A stretch of DNA of 44,295 nt from Escherichia phage GeorgBuechner. The number at the start of each line of letters is the position of its first letter. The stretch's first letter is position 1. Under the pieces are notes generated by a model. The model was given only the letters and a program-made list of their open reading frames with translations. It searched no databases and was not told the origin of the DNA. The translations under genes were made by a program, and so were the position numbers. The stretch lies in sequence record MZ501070. One strand, given 5' to 3'. Shown here one piece after another: positions 24,989 through 32,059 of this stretch.

Positions 24989-25121
24989 GTTAATTGCGTA
25001 AATATTCGGGACCAAATCGCCACACGCCCGACGAATTGCCGCGATGTTCTTCGGGCAGTCCTCAATGATGACCAGTTCAGACACGTCCGCGTAGCAGACC
25101 ATTTTGAACACGGCGCACGCC

Positions 25122-25316
25122 TTAAACTCTGGCGGAAAACTTGTTACACACAAGATGCCAATTTGCGGTTATGACAAGCCAGCCGGTAAGGTCCATACCC
25201 AGGATATATTCTGGACGTGACACTCGCTTCACACGATCGCGGCGCGGGTCGATGTTATAGTCTCTTTGCATTCGGTCTACTACCGCAGGGTCGCGGTCAA
25301 CGATTAAGATATTCAA
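25122..25316 (-). CDS. Possible small protein with TTG start
   Basis: 64 aa; strong SD AAGGAG 6 nt upstream of TTG at 25314-25316; overlaps end of Dam gene by 20 nt. Confidence 0.25.
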   Translation of the reverse strand: MNILIVDRDPAVVDRMQRDYNIDPRRDRVKRVSRPEYILGMDLTGWLVITANWHLVCNKFSARV

Positions 25317-25782
25317 GGAGTTCTCCTTCGCTCATTATTTCAATTTGTGCGCTGCCGGTTGGCGGCGCTTCGTCAAATATTATCAATTGCTGGCATTTGT
25401 TATTGCTCGGCCCGACTTCACCGGTGACAGCATGTATAAATCGTATCCGCCAGTCCAGAAGAATTATCAGGTTTGCAGTCTTCCGGGCCAGCCTCGCCCA
25501 CTTAGTCGACGTGTCCTGATTCAGCAGCATGACCGTCCGGCGTCCGTGCGCTGCGCACTCGACCCACGGCAGCGGATCTGAATACGGCGGATTGCACCAC
25601 TTCCACCCTTTCAACTCTGCCCAGTCCACATCAAGCGCGCTGTGCTCCGCCGTGAAGTAACGCGGTAGCAGATGATTGGCGTCGCTCGCCGCCATATCGT
25701 AACGGAATCGGAACTTACGGCGCAGCGGTTTAAATAAAGCTGGCGGTGTGCGCCAGCTATCTTTCTGCTCACTCTTCTGCAT
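25297..25782 (-). CDS. dam: DNA N6-adenine methyltransferase (phage Dam type)
   Basis: 161 aa; DSWRTPPALF near N-terminus and catalytic WCNPPYSD (NPPY) motif. Confidence 0.8.
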   Translation of the reverse strand: MQKSEQKDSWRTPPALFKPLRRKFRFRYDMAASDANHLLPRYFTAEHSALDVDWAELKGWKWCNPPYSDPLPWVECAAHGRRTVMLLNQDTSTKWARLARKTANLIILLDWRIRFIHAVTGEVGPSNNKCQQLIIFDEAPPTGSAQIEIMSEGELLEYLNR

Positions 25783-26233
25783 AGTCTGGGTCTATCGCAT
25801 ACAGGGCAATCTTATCGCCTTTCGTCAAGATGCGCTGCACGCGCTTTGACTCCTCGGCGCTCATAGGGCGAGCGTTCGGGTATAGGCTGCCGTTTGTGGG
25901 ATTGCGCCACGCCACAAGCACCAGGTCTTTACGGTCGATCTTAGACTGGCGGCCCTTCGCGCGCACGTATTCCTCGGCCCGTTTGCAATGCTCGCGCAGA
26001 CCTTCGGCAGTGATGCGGTTTAGCGCGACGGTGGTGGTGTATCCGGTGCGCTGCATAATACCCATCAACTCATACAGCAGATCGAAGCGCTCCTCTAATT
26101 CCTTGCGCGCCTTCTCCTCGCCTTCATAGCTCGCCAGATAGGTGTCTGCCAGCGCGCTAACACGTTCGGCATGTTCGCGGGCTTCGAGGCATTGCGCGGC
26201 CCAGTAATTTTTCTCTTCTTGTAAAATTTTCAT
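25769..26233 (-). CDS. Hypothetical protein
   Basis: 154 aa, charged/helical; SD GGAG; overlaps Dam start. Confidence 0.5.
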   Translation of the reverse strand: MKILQEEKNYWAAQCLEAREHAERVSALADTYLASYEGEEKARKELEERFDLLYELMGIMQRTGYTTTVALNRITAEGLREHCKRAEEYVRAKGRQSKIDRKDLVLVAWRNPTNGSLYPNARPMSAEESKRVQRILTKGDKIALYAIDPDYAEE

Positions 26234-26476
26234 TTATTTAATCTCCGTAGTGCGGATTTCCTTGCGCGGAATAAATTTGCCGTCTTTCTCGACCCAGCAA
26301 GTTCCGTAACGCCATTGGGTATTACGGCCTGTTTGCTCGGCATATACGGTCTTGCATTCATAGCGTTCCGTATAGTAAATAGCCGCGGTAGGTACGAAAA
26401 TACAAACGGCAAACATGAGGGTGAGTATCACCCAAAATCGAAGGTCGCCGTCGTAGTCGAAAAATAATGATCTCAT
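26234..26476 (-). CDS. Small membrane protein
   Basis: 80 aa; TM segment FWVILTLMFAVCIFVPTAAIYY; SD GGAG. Confidence 0.45.
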   Translation of the reverse strand: MRSLFFDYDGDLRFWVILTLMFAVCIFVPTAAIYYTERYECKTVYAEQTGRNTQWRYGTCWVEKDGKFIPRKEIRTTEIK

Positions 26477-26530
26477 CGTGTTGTCTCCAGGTATTAAAAA
26501 GGGCGTCCAAACCGGACACCCTTAATGTAC

Positions 26531-26557
26531 TGCAACCAATCTAATTATGCAACCAAT
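26531..26557. promoter_or_regulatory. Tandem pair of TGCAACCAAT motifs between minus-strand genes
   Basis: TGCAACCAAT at 26531-26540 and 26548-26557; on the minus strand followed by an imperfect hairpin plus T-run and the SD of gene 26234..26476. Confidence 0.5.
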
Positions 26558-26881
26558 TTACGCATAAAAGTTTGGGTCGCGTGCAACGTCTACCAGGTAA
26601 AGGTTGCTTATGCGGTTGCCGTAGTGCCCTGGAGTGCGCTGGCGGCACACAACGGCGAAGCCTGGGGGGATTGTATTGCCCGTCTCAATAATCCACGCCA
26701 CGCGTGCGCCAGACAGCGTCTTGCCGTTGCATTCGATACGAGTACCGCCATCTGCAGTATTGAGGTTGCCAATTTTGCAGCCGGTGGATTTCAGGCGAAT
26801 TACGCCGGTTTTGCTGTCGTAGGTGAATAGCTGGTTAGTCATTGCGACCGAAAAGTCGATGGCTTCGAATGAAGTATTCAT
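26558..26881 (-). CDS. HNH endonuclease-like protein (HNH_3-like, possibly degenerate)
   Basis: 107 aa; SGARVAWIIETGNTIPPGFAVVCRQRTPGHYGNRISNLYL resembles the HNH_3 pattern, but the usual D-H dyad position reads C-R; SD ACGAGGA. Confidence 0.4.
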   Translation of the reverse strand: MNTSFEAIDFSVAMTNQLFTYDSKTGVIRLKSTGCKIGNLNTADGGTRIECNGKTLSGARVAWIIETGNTIPPGFAVVCRQRTPGHYGNRISNLYLVDVARDPNFYA

Positions 26882-27588
26882 TTTAAATTTTCCTCGTTAA
26901 CCGCTATCGCGAAGCCGCGCGGAGTGAGCGACCGGATTAATTTTGTGCGGGCTGATTTGCCTCCGAGGCGACTATACTGCTTCGAGTACCCTTTTTCAAC
27001 GAAAACAGGTCTCTTCTCGGGCATACGGAAGCCGTTGCCGGTCCATAAGCAGGTCAGCTTCGGATATGAGTCGCGGGCGTTGATGTATTCAGGGAACAAC
27101 GGATGTACGTCATCCTCCGGCAGATATCCCCCATACTCCCACGGGTCGAACGAGTGATCCGGCTTTCGCCACTGGGTGGAAAGCACACTGCGCGGATTCT
27201 CAATCATATATGGCACTTCGAAGAAGTCACCCAGGTAAGCGGCGATCTTCGCGGTGCGCACCGCCTTAAGCTGAAAGGCTGGGTCTTTTGCACGCTTGCG
27301 TGGGAAAGCTGGCGCACCGCTAACCGCCAGATCCGTACACGGCGGGAACGCATAAATGATATCCGGCGTACCGAAATCGCCATTCATCGCGCGGTCCACG
27401 AAGTCCAGGTCGATAAACACATTACGATAGCGAATGCCGCGACCATAGATCCGGTAGTCCAGATAAGACCCGTGATCGGCTTCGGAGTAGTTGAAGCAGT
27501 AGCACGTATGCCCCATCTCGGCGGCACGCTCAATCATCAAGCCGCTGCCGTCAAACAATGACCAGATTGTCATTTTAGCAATAGTCAT
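26878..27588 (-). CDS. Short C5-cytosine DNA methyltransferase-like protein
   Basis: 236 aa; motif I-like LFDGSG, motif IV-like FPPCTDLAVSG (catalytic PC), motif VI-like MIENP; no obvious large target-recognition domain. Confidence 0.55.
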   Translation of the reverse strand: MTIAKMTIWSLFDGSGLMIERAAEMGHTCYCFNYSEADHGSYLDYRIYGRGIRYRNVFIDLDFVDRAMNGDFGTPDIIYAFPPCTDLAVSGAPAFPRKRAKDPAFQLKAVRTAKIAAYLGDFFEVPYMIENPRSVLSTQWRKPDHSFDPWEYGGYLPEDDVHPLFPEYINARDSYPKLTCLWTGNGFRMPEKRPVFVEKGYSKQYSRLGGKSARTKLIRSLTPRGFAIAVNEENLK

Positions 27589-29009
27589 TTGCGCGCCTTT
27601 TTAGCTTTCATGTATTCCATTAAATCGTCCTGAATGTCCCGCTTACTGTCGCGACGCTCCGCGACCAGTTCGTCCAGTGTGCCGCGCGCCTGGATAATGT
27701 AGACGAATACGGGACGAGGGTGTCCGGCTTGCATCTGGCGAACTGGCCCGATACGCTCCACGATCTGCGCGAAATGCTCATAGTTCCAGGTGTCTGAGAA
27801 GATAGCAAGGTGGTGTCCGCCGTCCTGCAAGTTAAGGCCGTGACCTGCCGATGCCGGGTGCGCAAACATGATGGGGATCTCGCCCCTGTTCCACGCTTCC
27901 ATATCCTTATTTCCTTGCTTTCCCTTACCCATCGCGACGCCGTGCGGGAATTTCTTCTTAAGACGTGCCAGGTCATGCTTGTACTGGTACGCGACGAGCA
28001 ACGGTGCGCCGTTCAACTCCTCTACGATACTTTCCAGCGCGTCCAGTTTAGCGTCGTGAATTTTCACCCATTCGTCGGTGCGCTCGCCGTCTTCGTCGAC
28101 TTTATACACGGCCCCGGAAGCAAGCTGAAGGCACTTAATAGTCTTCGAAGCAGCGTTCGCCGCCTCCACCGTCCCGCTTTCCAGTTCGGCAAATAGCTCC
28201 GCTTCGAACTGGTCATAAATCTTGCGGGCTTTCTTCGGCAGGTCAACAACAACCGGCGTATAGATTGGCTTGTCACACCCGAAGTATTCAGCCGCATCAA
28301 CGGTTAGCGACACGTCGGACAGGCGTTGTTGTATTTCTTTCTCGGAGTTCTTAAGCGGGGCGTGCTGCATAGTGAAGCTGCCAGGCTTAACCGGCTTACT
28401 AATAAACCAGCGGTCTGTGAATGCCTTATAGCTACTGCCGAGGCGTTCGCCACCGTCTACGAACCACGTCTGACCCCATAAGTCTTTCAGCCCGTTTGGC
28501 GCCGGTGTGCCGGTCAGGTTAATCCAGCGCTTGACGTGCTTATGTGCGATTGCCGCCAGTGCGCGTGCGCGCTTACTACCCTGCTTGCTTCGGTAGCCTT
28601 TCAGCTTAGTCGATTCATCGGCAACAACGACCGTAAAGGGCCACGCATCGCCGTAATAGTCAACCAGCCACTCAACCACATCATAGTTAACACAAACCAC
28701 GTTAGCGTCGCTCTCAAGCGCCGCAATACGGTCCTTCTCCGACCCAGTGCCGTCTACGACCAGCAGGGATGAGAACCGCCATTTCTCCTGCTCCGGGGGC
28801 CATGTACCCGACGCAACACGCAGCGGGGCCAGCACCAGTACGCGGTCCTCATGGTGGGACAGGACGCCAGTCTGGAACATTTTATTCAGCGCCCACATTG
28901 TCGCGCCGGTTTTACCGGACCCCATTGTCGCCCAGATATTACATCGCTTATGCTTGAGGATGAACGAGGTTATCAACTTCTGATATTCGCGGCGTCGGAA
29001 TCTTGCCAT
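27585..29009 (-). CDS. DNA helicase (SNF2/DEAD-like superfamily 2)
   Basis: 474 aa from ATG 29007-29009 with SD AAGGAGG (track ORF extends to 29099 but overlaps the upstream gene); Walker A MGSGKTGA, DExx-like VVADEST. Confidence 0.8.
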   Translation of the reverse strand: MARFRRREYQKLITSFILKHKRCNIWATMGSGKTGATMWALNKMFQTGVLSHHEDRVLVLAPLRVASGTWPPEQEKWRFSSLLVVDGTGSEKDRIAALESDANVVCVNYDVVEWLVDYYGDAWPFTVVVADESTKLKGYRSKQGSKRARALAAIAHKHVKRWINLTGTPAPNGLKDLWGQTWFVDGGERLGSSYKAFTDRWFISKPVKPGSFTMQHAPLKNSEKEIQQRLSDVSLTVDAAEYFGCDKPIYTPVVVDLPKKARKIYDQFEAELFAELESGTVEAANAASKTIKCLQLASGAVYKVDEDGERTDEWVKIHDAKLDALESIVEELNGAPLLVAYQYKHDLARLKKKFPHGVAMGKGKQGNKDMEAWNRGEIPIMFAHPASAGHGLNLQDGGHHLAIFSDTWNYEHFAQIVERIGPVRQMQAGHPRPVFVYIIQARGTLDELVAERRDSKRDIQDDLMEYMKAKKARK

Positions 29010-29013
29010 CTCT

Positions 29014-29232
29014 TTATTCCTCCTTTTTCCAGACTTCAGTTTCACTATCCCAGTTCCTCTTTGTGGCGTCGTAGTTGGTGGCGTGTCCGATGTGGACACC
29101 GGTAGCCCGGAAGCTCTTGAACTTCTGCCAGCACACCGTCAACGGCAGCGGGTGGTTCATGCCCGCAATAAACCACACGCGATCGCCCTGTTTACATTCG
29201 CCCAGCTTGGTGAGTCGGTAATGTTCTTTCAT
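29014..29232 (-). CDS. Small hypothetical protein
   Basis: 72 aa from ATG 29230-29232 (MKEHYRLTKL...) with SD GGGAG; longer TTG-initiated track ORF rejected. Confidence 0.4.
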   Translation of the reverse strand: MKEHYRLTKLGECKQGDRVWFIAGMNHPLPLTVCWQKFKSFRATGVHIGHATNYDATKRNWDSETEVWKKEE

Positions 29233-29489: not shown

Positions 29490-29768
29490 CTACGCGACCA
29501 ATTCAGCAACCAATAAATCACAGTCGGCTATGTTGTCGATAACGCGAACGTCAGCACCGCGGCGGGCCATTCGCTCATGTTCACGTACCTGGTGCGGCTT
29601 TGGTTTTCCTCCGGGGCGCTTCACTTCTACGAATACCACTTTGCCGTTTATGATTATAATCAGGTCGGGCGCGCCTGAGCGCCCCTCCCATATCACCTTA
29701 CGGCAGAATCCGCCAACCGCTTTCACCAGCTTCATCAGGTGACTTTGTACCTTGCCTTCTGGTGTCAT
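29490..29768 (-). CDS. VRR-NUC domain nuclease
   Basis: 92 aa; GAPDLIIIINGKVVFVEVKRPGGKPKPHQ matches the D ... E-V-K core of VRR-NUC proteins; start overlaps polymerase stop. Confidence 0.65.
   Translation of the reverse strand: MTPEGKVQSHLMKLVKAVGGFCRKVIWEGRSGAPDLIIIINGKVVFVEVKRPGGKPKPHQVREHERMARRGADVRVIDNIADCDLLVAELVA
29495..29514. promoter_or_regulatory. GCGACCAAT / GCAACCAAT motif pair at the 3' end of the VRR-NUC gene
   Basis: GCGACCAATtcaGCAACCAAT overlapping the last codons of 29490..29768. Confidence 0.35.
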
Positions 29769-32059
29769 TATTTTCTATACCTGTACATGATGTCGCCTTC
29801 TGCGGCAAGTGGGAAGCCTTTCGCCCAAATAGGCAGGTCGCACATCAGTGCGCAAAGCTCCTCGGTCGTGTAGTCGTCGGTGTCCGGCACTTCTGTGATC
29901 AATTCGTCGTGTACTGACAGGACTATTTCATAGCCCGCAGCTTCAACGCCAGGCATGGACCACGCGAGGATATCGCGACACAGCGCCTGTACGATGTTTT
30001 CCGTCAGTTTGCCGCCGTAGGTATACTGGAAGCCCCACTGGCGCGTCGTCTGATTCTCGCCCTGGTATTTGATGCGGGTGCTGGTGCGCTTCTTGCCGGT
30101 GTCTTCGTCGATCTCGGTAGTGACAGACAGCGCGATGCCGGGGTAGCTCATGATGCGCCCCGACGGCAACTCAATTTTCAACCACCAACCGGCGGCGTTC
30201 GGGTCGTCGCGCTCCTCGTCGAAGGTTGGGTCGTGCTTCGCCTTCGTGCGCACAATCTTAAGCGCTTTCCTACCGTCCTGGCGAACGTTCGCGCCAGCCC
30301 AGTATGCTTTGCCCGGATTGCGGATTGCACACAACACCGCGTCCTCAAGCTCGGCCCAAAAGGCTACCGTCTTCGGGTGGGCCTCACGCCACATACGTTT
30401 GATCGCGTCGCAGGTCAGCCAAACGTTTTTAGGCAGTATGTATGTTGGGCGCTCGTCTTTCTTGCCAGGCTTCGGCGGGCGTTTCGCTTCGTTAATGCGG
30501 GCGTACTCATAGCCGCGTTTCGCCGCCGCCCAAATGTGATCCGGGAACGTGCCTTTCATGACGTCAGCCATAGTGTAAAGGTCGAGGCCCAGGTTTTTAG
30601 CGAACTGCAAGAACGCCGCGACGCCGCCACCATAGCCCAGCCCCAATTCGCACGCCTTACCGATCTGGCGTAAGTCCTTGCGGTTAGCTTTAATGTAGTC
30701 CGGGTCCAGGCCGAACATTTTACCGGCAGTCTCGCAATAGATATCGCGACCGGCCTTAAACACCATGAGCGCGGTTTTCTCGCCCGCGATCCAGGCAAGT
30801 CCACGCCCTTCCACGTTGGAGTAGTCCGCTACGACAAACTTCTTGCCCTTAGCCGGGATAATGCACCCGCGAACGGTCGCGGCTGTTAGCTTAGATATGT
30901 CATACGCCCAGTGCGCGGTTCCGCGTAACAGGGCGTTGATGCCGTTGGTGAGCATGTGCGACCGGACCCAAAAAGAAACGTCGCTCTCGCCTTCTCGGCG
31001 CTTAATCTTCCCTTCGTGATCGTCGCTATACTCGCCGCGTGCCAGGTTTTGAGGCTGAAAACCTTTACCGGCCCAACGCAGTGTACGCTTTGCCCCACCA
31101 TACTGAATGCAACCACGGCGGCGTCCATCGGCAGACAGGCCGTTGACGAGCGGATTGTACTTAGTCGATGCCGTTGATGACGCACCGAGACGCATCTCAA
31201 TCAGCGCTTTGCCCTCGTCGGGGAAGTCCGGATCTTCCAGTAGGTCGTTTAGCGTGGATTTCTGCGCGTTGTGGATCGTGAACGCCGGGGCGATATCACG
31301 CAGGATTGGCAGGAAGTCATTTCCTGTCAGTTTACCGCCAAATCGCTCCCAGGCTTCTTCCTTCAATTCTTCCTTATGCGCCTGCACCGCTTTGATCGCG
31401 GCGTTCGCCAGGTCAACGTCCACATAGAAGCCGCGGTCGTTGATCAACTGGTCGATAAGCAGGATTTCATCTTCCTTCGGAGTATTACCCCAGTCCGGTA
31501 TGCGCCAGTAGACTTCACGCATTGCGATAATATCCAGCGCGGCATAGCGCAAAAATTTGGCCCATTCTTCAGGGTGAGTCTCGCGGGTGTAGCGGCGGAT
31601 TTTGTAGGTCTTCGGGGTAGGCTTGCAGAATCGTTTAATCAGCGCCTTGCCTGCCTTATCCTTCGCGTGCTCTGCGTCAACGCCCAGCACCTGGCACTGC
31701 ATATCGAGGCTACCCGGAAGCGCGTGGCGAAAGGCCATAATCATTGTGTCTTCGATCTGGCTTACCGGCAGGTCAATACCCCACTTCTCGCGGATAACCA
31801 GGCGGTCAAACAGGAGGCCGTTAGCCATCACTATTTTAGCCTTCTTGCGGCATACCTGGCGGAGCGCCTTGCGCAGTTCACGCGGCATTGTTGGGGATTC
31901 AGTGGCGTCCCATGTCTGCACGCGGCCCTCGTCGATGGCGTATGTGCAAATCATAATCTCGGTGGTTGGGTGCTCTGCGTAGGCGTACGCCCCTACTTTC
32001 TTCAGGTCCACCCCGCTAAATGTCTCGGTATCGAGAAACAGGCGTTCGAAGTCTTTCAT
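29768..32059 (-). CDS. DNA polymerase, family A, with N-terminal 3'-5' exonuclease domain
   Basis: 763 aa; exo motif LFLDTETFS; Pol A motifs VVADYSNVEGR, RQIGKACELGLGYGGG and LSVHDELITEV. Confidence 0.9.
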   Translation of the reverse strand: MKDFERLFLDTETFSGVDLKKVGAYAYAEHPTTEIMICTYAIDEGRVQTWDATESPTMPRELRKALRQVCRKKAKIVMANGLLFDRLVIREKWGIDLPVSQIEDTMIMAFRHALPGSLDMQCQVLGVDAEHAKDKAGKALIKRFCKPTPKTYKIRRYTRETHPEEWAKFLRYAALDIIAMREVYWRIPDWGNTPKEDEILLIDQLINDRGFYVDVDLANAAIKAVQAHKEELKEEAWERFGGKLTGNDFLPILRDIAPAFTIHNAQKSTLNDLLEDPDFPDEGKALIEMRLGASSTASTKYNPLVNGLSADGRRRGCIQYGGAKRTLRWAGKGFQPQNLARGEYSDDHEGKIKRREGESDVSFWVRSHMLTNGINALLRGTAHWAYDISKLTAATVRGCIIPAKGKKFVVADYSNVEGRGLAWIAGEKTALMVFKAGRDIYCETAGKMFGLDPDYIKANRKDLRQIGKACELGLGYGGGVAAFLQFAKNLGLDLYTMADVMKGTFPDHIWAAAKRGYEYARINEAKRPPKPGKKDERPTYILPKNVWLTCDAIKRMWREAHPKTVAFWAELEDAVLCAIRNPGKAYWAGANVRQDGRKALKIVRTKAKHDPTFDEERDDPNAAGWWLKIELPSGRIMSYPGIALSVTTEIDEDTGKKRTSTRIKYQGENQTTRQWGFQYTYGGKLTENIVQALCRDILAWSMPGVEAAGYEIVLSVHDELITEVPDTDDYTTEELCALMCDLPIWAKGFPLAAEGDIMYRYRK

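Follow-up and report, generated by a model that had tools for sequence, protein, structure and literature searches.

The closest described counterpart of the gene considered here belongs to phage K42, a KarlJaspers strain (Bas06; Hanrivervirus, Drexlerviridae), which escapes the retron Ec86 (Eco1) via lesions in a 711-bp dcm gene, with four such escapers described (Wang et al., bioRxiv 10.1101/2023.08.16.553469). K42 Dcm was reported to place 5-methylcytosine (5mC) on the multicopy single-stranded DNA (msDNA) of Ec86, leading to abortive infection; in Dcm-expressing cells, msDNA 5mC was high as judged by mass spectrometry coupled to liquid chromatography (LC-MS) against a standard, expression was toxic only with the retron present, and C82A/E128A/K175A/K176A substitutions left neither activity nor retron toxicity (bioRxiv 10.1101/2023.08.16.553469). 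Defence against K42 was lost when the CCTGG of the msDNA stem was replaced by AATGG, ACTGG or CATGG, and 34 of 35 Ec86-sensitive phages of the Hzau collection, 'Siphoviridae' among them, encoded Dcm (bioRxiv 10.1101/2023.08.16.553469). Here, we describe a homolog of this enzyme in Escherichia phage GeorgBuechner (record MZ501070). The stretch analysed (44,295 nt; hereafter the window) is an essentially complete genome of a Dhillonvirus (HK578-like) coliphage, and the gene in question (26878..27588, minus strand) encodes a short, Dcm-like C5-cytosine DNA methyltransferase of 236 aa.

The KarlJaspers gene bas06_0055 (711 bp) is annotated as 'Dcm-like C5 cytosine methyltransferase', and its product aligns with the window protein from end to end at 54% identity (E 1e-86). 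Another Hanrivervirus ortholog, egaa_9 (54% identity), carries exactly the C82, E128, K175 and K176 mutated in K42 Dcm; these correspond to C84, E130, K177 and L178 of the window protein, i.e. three of the four are kept. The two enzymes are thus alike in length (236 aa), family, the Cys, Glu and Lys residues offset by two, and the presence of a helicase nearby; they differ in lineage (Hanrivervirus vs. Dhillonvirus), in their immediate neighbour genes, and in having Lys or Leu at the fourth position. Full-length identity together with the matching residues makes the window protein a clear member of a partly characterised enzyme family. With the gene already annotated in sister phages and a family member characterised, the feature itself is not new. 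In Oekolampad (Bas18), a sister isolate, the same gene is bas18_0036 (99.2% aa identity; likewise annotated 'Dcm-like C5 cytosine methyltransferase'), with no substantive difference, and the Dhillonvirus relatives Sponge, mckay, welsh, jat and UHP65 name it 'C-5 cytosine-specific DNA methylase'. About half of 25 listed relatives annotate it as 'hypothetical protein'. The reading we favour, at a probability of about 0.82, is a minimal, stand-alone enzyme: the open reading frame (ORF) would code for a DNA cytosine-5 methyltransferase of the phage 'Dcm-like' family that depends on S-adenosylmethionine (SAM, AdoMet) and is expressed from the Dhillonvirus replication module.

A reading made earlier from the letters of this DNA (the sequence-only reading) had proposed a C5-methyltransferase-like protein with motifs I, IV and VI in canonical order, and this order stands. 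Motif I (FDGSG, residues 12–16; 27541..27555, minus strand), the predicted AdoMet-binding loop, pairs in hhalign with FAGGGG of the carboxymethyltransferase CmoX and FAGLGG of M.HhaI, and was also aligned with FSGAGG. Motif IV (PPC, residues 82–84; 27337..27345, minus strand), containing the predicted nucleophile Cys84, lines up with the SPPC of CmoX and the PPC of M.HaeIII, and motif VI (ENP, residues 130–132; 27193..27201, minus strand), containing Glu130, with the ENV of CmoX. Conservation was scored on an alignment of 36 diverse family members reaching down to 32% identity. C84, G91, E130, N131 and P132 were invariant in 36/36, as would be expected if the enzyme is active, and within motif I only L11 and G16 were near-invariant. 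Loop 85–91 has a predicted local distance difference test score (pLDDT) below 50 in the structure model, which suggests that it is flexible.

Profile and structure comparisons support the ORF as an enzyme of C5-cytosine methyltransferase fold with both key catalytic residues. The PHROG 757 family ('DNA methyltransferase') matches residues 2–234 (E 4.5e-83). Aligned by hhalign to a reference set of SpCmoX relatives, M.HhaI and M.HaeIII, the 36-member alignment matched over residues 4–136, spanning motifs I–VI, with a probability of 95.8% (E 7.3e-9); the paired features were motif I, a polar or acidic residue ending strand 2, the motif III Asp, PPC and ENP. Against M.HhaI alone, the family gave a weak match (probability 12%). 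Searched against PDB sequences, the window protein returned only noise; family profiles gave a marginal M.HaeIII match in the N-terminal part only (E 0.24 and 0.019), neither sequence nor profile searches of PDB sequences found a PHROG 757 member among solved structures, and a PADLOC scan of the protein gave no match. Ten of 15 close relatives matched PF00145, three of them (P0020, P0022 and P0056; 24.7–28.5 bits, cutoff 22) above the gathering score and over profile positions 4–94 only, i.e. motifs I–IV. When the predicted model was searched with Foldseek, the best 38 PDB matches were all DNMT3A/B (probability 1.0), and the top matches in a viral structure library were family members named 'site-specific DNA-cytosine methylase'. 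The proposed C5-methyltransferase likeness is thus borne out by fold, catalytic residues and profile homology.

Beyond ENP, the protein departs from canonical enzymes. The model places a short strand (145–147) before a mostly coiled, conserved insertion (residues 148–178, PWEYGGYLPEDDVHPLFPEYINARDSYPK; 27055..27147, minus strand), followed by strand 179–184 (TCLWTG). The insertion, a candidate DNA-contact element that would substitute for a conventional target-recognition domain, follows the pattern PWEYGGYLPEDD.HP.FPEYI.ARD.YPK, which ends in the near-invariant K177. Another ~35 residues with two short helices lead to a C-terminal conserved block (residues 216–230, KLIRSLTPRGFAIAV; 26899..26943, minus strand) of the form IRSxTPRGFAxAV, in which P223 is invariant, R219, S220, T222 and G225 are near-invariant, and the last helix (224–234) begins. 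Based on conservation and a weak hhalign match, this block is the probable equivalent of motif X: with the C-terminal halves only, hhalign (E 0.054) sets it on GRMVPP of CmoX in a register uncertain by one residue, Ser220 rather than Arg219 pairing with CmoX R350. The same weak alignment puts motif IX at residues 187–195, straight after strand 179–184, with the invariant P190 on the motif IX Pro. At most ~35 residues (185–218) lie where a variable target-recognition domain (TRD) would be found between motifs VIII and IX, and the earlier remark that there is little room for such a domain was correct. We infer that the TRD is essentially deleted.

Most likely, as in canonical C5-methyltransferases, a flipped-out cytosine would be attacked at C6 by Cys84 and protonated at N3 by Glu130, upon which the methyl group of SAM would move to C5 and beta-elimination would follow. 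The substrate would be replicating phage DNA, its target probably CCWGG-like sites in line with the report on the homolog, and the DNA might be read by the 148–178 insertion together with the short 185–215 segment, possibly in a DNMT3-like dimer. Together with a Dam-family neighbour described below, the enzyme may top up Dam/Dcm-type methylation, which could protect against methylation-sensitive restriction of the EcoRII or MboI type and, by the same token, might leave the phage open to defences that sense methylation, such as retron Eco1.

Relative to canonical C5-methyltransferases (PF00145: M.HhaI, M.HaeIII and E. coli Dcm/M.EcoRII), the phage protein is 90–240 residues shorter, has no large TRD or small domain, does not conserve QxRxR or GN, and falls below Pfam detection. 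The catalytic domains of DNMT3A and DNMT3B (11–17% identity) are ~50 residues longer, retain the TRD loop and motif IX, and are oligomeric within multidomain proteins. SpCmoX, the DNA cytosine C5-carboxymethyltransferase of Synechococcus phage S-B43 (PDB 8YF3), measures 372 aa, with a full TRD and SPPC. The short length is, however, normal within PHROG 757 and unusual only in relation to the canonical enzymes: nearly all full-length homologs among 150 listed representatives are ~210–260 aa long.

This family is large. Homologs fell into 2876 clusters in a large protein collection, and a profile search returned 1855 representatives (50% identity) at E<=1e-3, 778 of them at E<=1e-10. By tblastn, the gene was present in 1509 of 50,697 phage records, with carriers among Dhillonvirus, Drexlerviridae (e.g. 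Hanrivervirus), many ~48–53-kb Klebsiella siphophages, 137–165-kb myoviruses (e.g. Krischvirus), and phages of Vibrio and Pantoea. Under the label 'Campylobacter phage' (host C. jejuni, e.g. MG065674.1 and MG065665.1), dozens of records hold near-coliphage versions, which reach 53% aa identity to the window protein and match Hanrivervirus dcm in DNA at megablast level; the records in question may be coliphage genomes that were mislabelled or contaminated. Two proteins of uncultured phages in BFVD (A0A6J5SE15_1 and A0A6J5NPY6_2; both >1100 aa, in library chunks of 1397 and 1126 residues) contain a domain matching the methyltransferase model well (template modelling score 0.61–0.62, 22–27% identity), and one of the two is annotated 'Helicase/UvrB, N-terminal'. 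This suggests that the short enzyme also exists fused to helicases, echoing the helicase–methyltransferase adjacency here and in KarlJaspers.

A number of observations weigh against the favoured reading. The window protein itself had no match to a Pfam or NCBIfam model at E<=1. Similarity to canonical enzymes ends after motif VI. Motif VIII (QxRxR) is not present in the protein, the nearest feature being Y175-x-K177-x-T179 before strand 179–184, and the Gly-Asn of motif X is not present in canonical form; Arg-Ser stands in its probable place, where DNMT3A/B also have Arg-Ser. The Leu178 that differs from K176 of K42 Dcm sits at a position that varies across the family. Our search of the literature yielded no methylation or restriction data for a Dhillonvirus enzyme.

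Nor is the gene universally retained. In the Dhillonvirus Teewinot (NC_073053.1, 25722-25907), it is cut to a 61-aa in-frame remnant joining MIIWPLFDGSG to FRMPEKK; residues ~17–185, including PPC and ENP, are gone, whereas the helicase, HNH and Dam genes on either side are undamaged. As Teewinot lacks the catalytic core, the gene is dispensable. This loss is a natural knock-out of the kind that retron Ec86 brought out in K42, and retron-type counter-selection would be expected to favour such losses.

For the homolog, the CCWGG target is assumed by analogy with host Dcm, the check having been the mutation of the msDNA site only, and such mutation might equally interfere with binding of the effector. 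The E. coli strain MG1655 is dcm+ and McrBC+, and host Dcm is a protein of ~470 aa. MG1655 carries the retron without self-activation, and msDNA 5mC is low in the absence of the phage enzyme (bioRxiv 10.1101/2023.08.16.553469). This tolerance implies that the phage enzyme and host Dcm are not equivalent, in level at the least; the difference may be one of site, level or chemistry.

A C5-methyltransferase that is 'Dcm-like' in name only, with a short or relaxed target other than CCWGG, is the most credible of the alternatives, possible if still doubtful. Low specificity or a non-canonical substrate, the alternative named in the sequence-only reading, is neither favoured nor disfavoured by the evidence. 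Roughly half as long as host Dcm, too short to house a Dcm-type TRD and without an NCBIfam match at E<=1, the protein would owe the label to its chemistry rather than its specificity. Only ~35 residues separate strand 179–184 from the C-terminal block, and the weak C-terminal alignment that sets motif IX directly behind this strand points the same way. So do the best structural matches, DNMT3A/B and CmoX: DNMT3 recognises a 2-bp site. For CmoX, a GC motif was reported from nanopore sequencing to be needed for modification. Host Dcm in MG1655 evidently does not trigger the retron and the phage enzyme does. Set against this are the loss of defence against K42 upon mutation of CCTGG in the msDNA and the isolation of carriers (mckay, welsh, jat and the Hzau collection) on the McrBC+ strain MG1655, which argues against dense purine-C methylation and agrees with a CCWGG-like target. 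With 151 sites, CCWGG shows no depletion in the window, as is compatible with protected sites; GATC (163 sites, ratio 0.80) is not strongly avoided either, and these counts say nothing on specificity. A literature search returned no mapped methylation motif for Dhillonvirus or Drexlerviridae C5-methyltransferases.

A change of chemistry is far less probable. In its broader form, improbable in our judgement, this idea takes PHROG 757 as TRD-less C5-transferases in which the motif X Asn has become Arg as in CmoX, producing, in enterobacterial hosts able to supply carboxy-SAM (Cx-SAM), 5-carboxymethylcytosine (5cxmC) or a mix of 5mC and 5cxmC, and/or acting at non-CCWGG sites. If true, it would mean a widespread, unrecognised cytosine modification in >1500 sequenced coliphage and Klebsiella phage genomes, and would provide an alternative account of why the phage enzyme, unlike host Dcm, fires retron Eco1. 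A CmoX-like carboxymethyltransferase proper, drawing on the Cx-SAM made by host CmoA to form 5cxmC alone or beside 5mC, is a shade less probable again. DNMT3A/B have an Arg at the motif X position and yet use SAM as cofactor. The register that would equate the near-invariant Arg219 with the motif X Asn (Asn304; R350 in CmoX) is ambiguous, the weak hhalign match pairing Ser220 with R350 instead. The catalytic motif reads FPPC, as opposed to SPPC in CmoX. SpCmoX uses Cx-SAM only, whereas with the K42 homolog of the phage enzyme, LC-MS against a standard registered 5mC. Moreover, SpCmoX is clustered with CmoA and CmoY, and CmoA lies in the contig of about three quarters of candidate CmoX genes (4257/5615), unlike in the window, where tblastn with SpCmoA and SpCmoY found no homolog of either (all E > 3, best 3.6). 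The evidence against carboxymethyl transfer is stronger than that in its favour.

Least probable of all is a catalytically dead or non-DNA-directed relic, e.g. a decoy that binds DNA or a methyltransferase of RNA or nucleotides: it would fit a protein that neither Pfam nor NCBIfam recognises, with non-canonical motifs VIII–X and dispensable in Teewinot, but the catalytic Cys and ENP are invariant in all 36 members, the family is kept at constant length in >1500 phage genomes, and the K42 mutant controls link the phenotype to the catalytic residues and to 5mC in DNA. A chance ORF or pseudogene was ruled out by conservation, the overlapping start and stop codons, and the invariant catalytic residues.

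In the window, the gene belongs to a minus-strand replication module that runs, in order, DNA polymerase I (29768-32059), small ORFs, a helicase, the 236-aa ORF, an HNH gene, ORFs of 80 and 154 aa, and dam. Region 25000-29200 has 93.6% DNA identity with phage Sponge in a search of phage records, and the 159 matching records are almost all Escherichia phages. Directly upstream of the methyltransferase gene lies a SNF2-type helicase of 504 aa (27585..29099, minus strand; PF00176, E 7.2e-11; PHROG 62, E 1.6e-157), and directly downstream an HNH (homing) endonuclease-like protein of 107 aa (26558..26881, minus strand; PHROG 99, E 5.4e-16; a putative homing endonuclease in Oekolampad). The helicase stop codon overlaps the ATG start of the methyltransferase gene (ATGA), whose own TGA stop overlaps the ATG of the HNH gene; these overlaps suggest that its translation is coupled to that of its neighbours. 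Between the two methylase genes also lie a conserved hypothetical protein of 80 aa (26234..26476, minus strand; PHROG 18961, E 5e-51, function unknown) and a conserved protein of 154 aa (25769..26233, minus strand; PHROG 10530, E 1.5e-93), which had no Pfam match. The PHROG label of the latter, 'DNA ligase', is unsupported: the ORF seems too short for a ligase of known kind, a relative in Gluttony_ev152 is annotated 'Possible DNA ligase but no evidence', and the label looks like a propagated guess.

The Dam-type NPPY methylase recognised in the sequence-only reading (25297..25782, minus strand; 161 aa) was confirmed as a Dam-family N6-adenine DNA methyltransferase. It scores 121.9 bits against PF05869 (cutoff 28.1; E 2.9e-35), with NPPY at residues 64–67 (25582-25593, minus strand); it also belongs to PHROG 111 and was called an orphan methyltransferase by PADLOC, and against the NCBIfam equivalog TIGR01712 it reaches 87.8 bits, under the 97.05 cutoff. 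Its placement two genes downstream was mistaken, in that it is the fourth gene, after the HNH, 80-aa and 154-aa ORFs. The annotation of Oekolampad gives the same order, and the synteny of helicase, methyltransferase, HNH, two small ORFs and Dam recurs in other Dhillonvirus.

Just downstream of dam, ORF 25122-25316 (minus strand) is a homolog of Ksap1, the protein through which Dhillonvirus activates KpAvs2 defence (PMC11564622). The version here has 64 aa, compared to 74 aa in Oekolampad bas18_0031, the last ~10 residues being missing. The escape of Bas16 from KpAvs2 has been ascribed to a C-terminal truncation of Ksap1 (PMC11564622), and GeorgBuechner may likewise escape, given its shorter homolog.

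As to the role of the two methylases, the 'dual epigenetic protection' proposed earlier is plausible and no more, as the textbook reading of such enzymes. The BASEL phenotypes do not support a protective role: Dhillonvirus and Drexlerviridae were comparatively sensitive to restriction–modification, and the methyltransferase content of Drexlerviridae did not predict resistance. Throughout the window, several 6-bp palindromes are strongly avoided relative to Markov expectation, namely AAGCTT (0, expected 17), GGGCCC (0, expected 13), GGCGCC (1, expected 22), GCCGGC (1, expected 19), CAGCTG (2, expected 15) and CGGCCG (1, expected 11), and CTAG and GGCC are likewise low; this avoidance points to restriction being evaded by sequence rather than by methylation. 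The best-documented consequence of carrying an enzyme of this family is instead a liability, as it triggers retron Ec86/Eco1. We know of no smaller autonomous family of DNA C5-methyltransferases, and at ~236 aa this may be the smallest. For the phages that encode it, the family offers a documented case in which a counter-defence gene also serves host defence as a danger signal.

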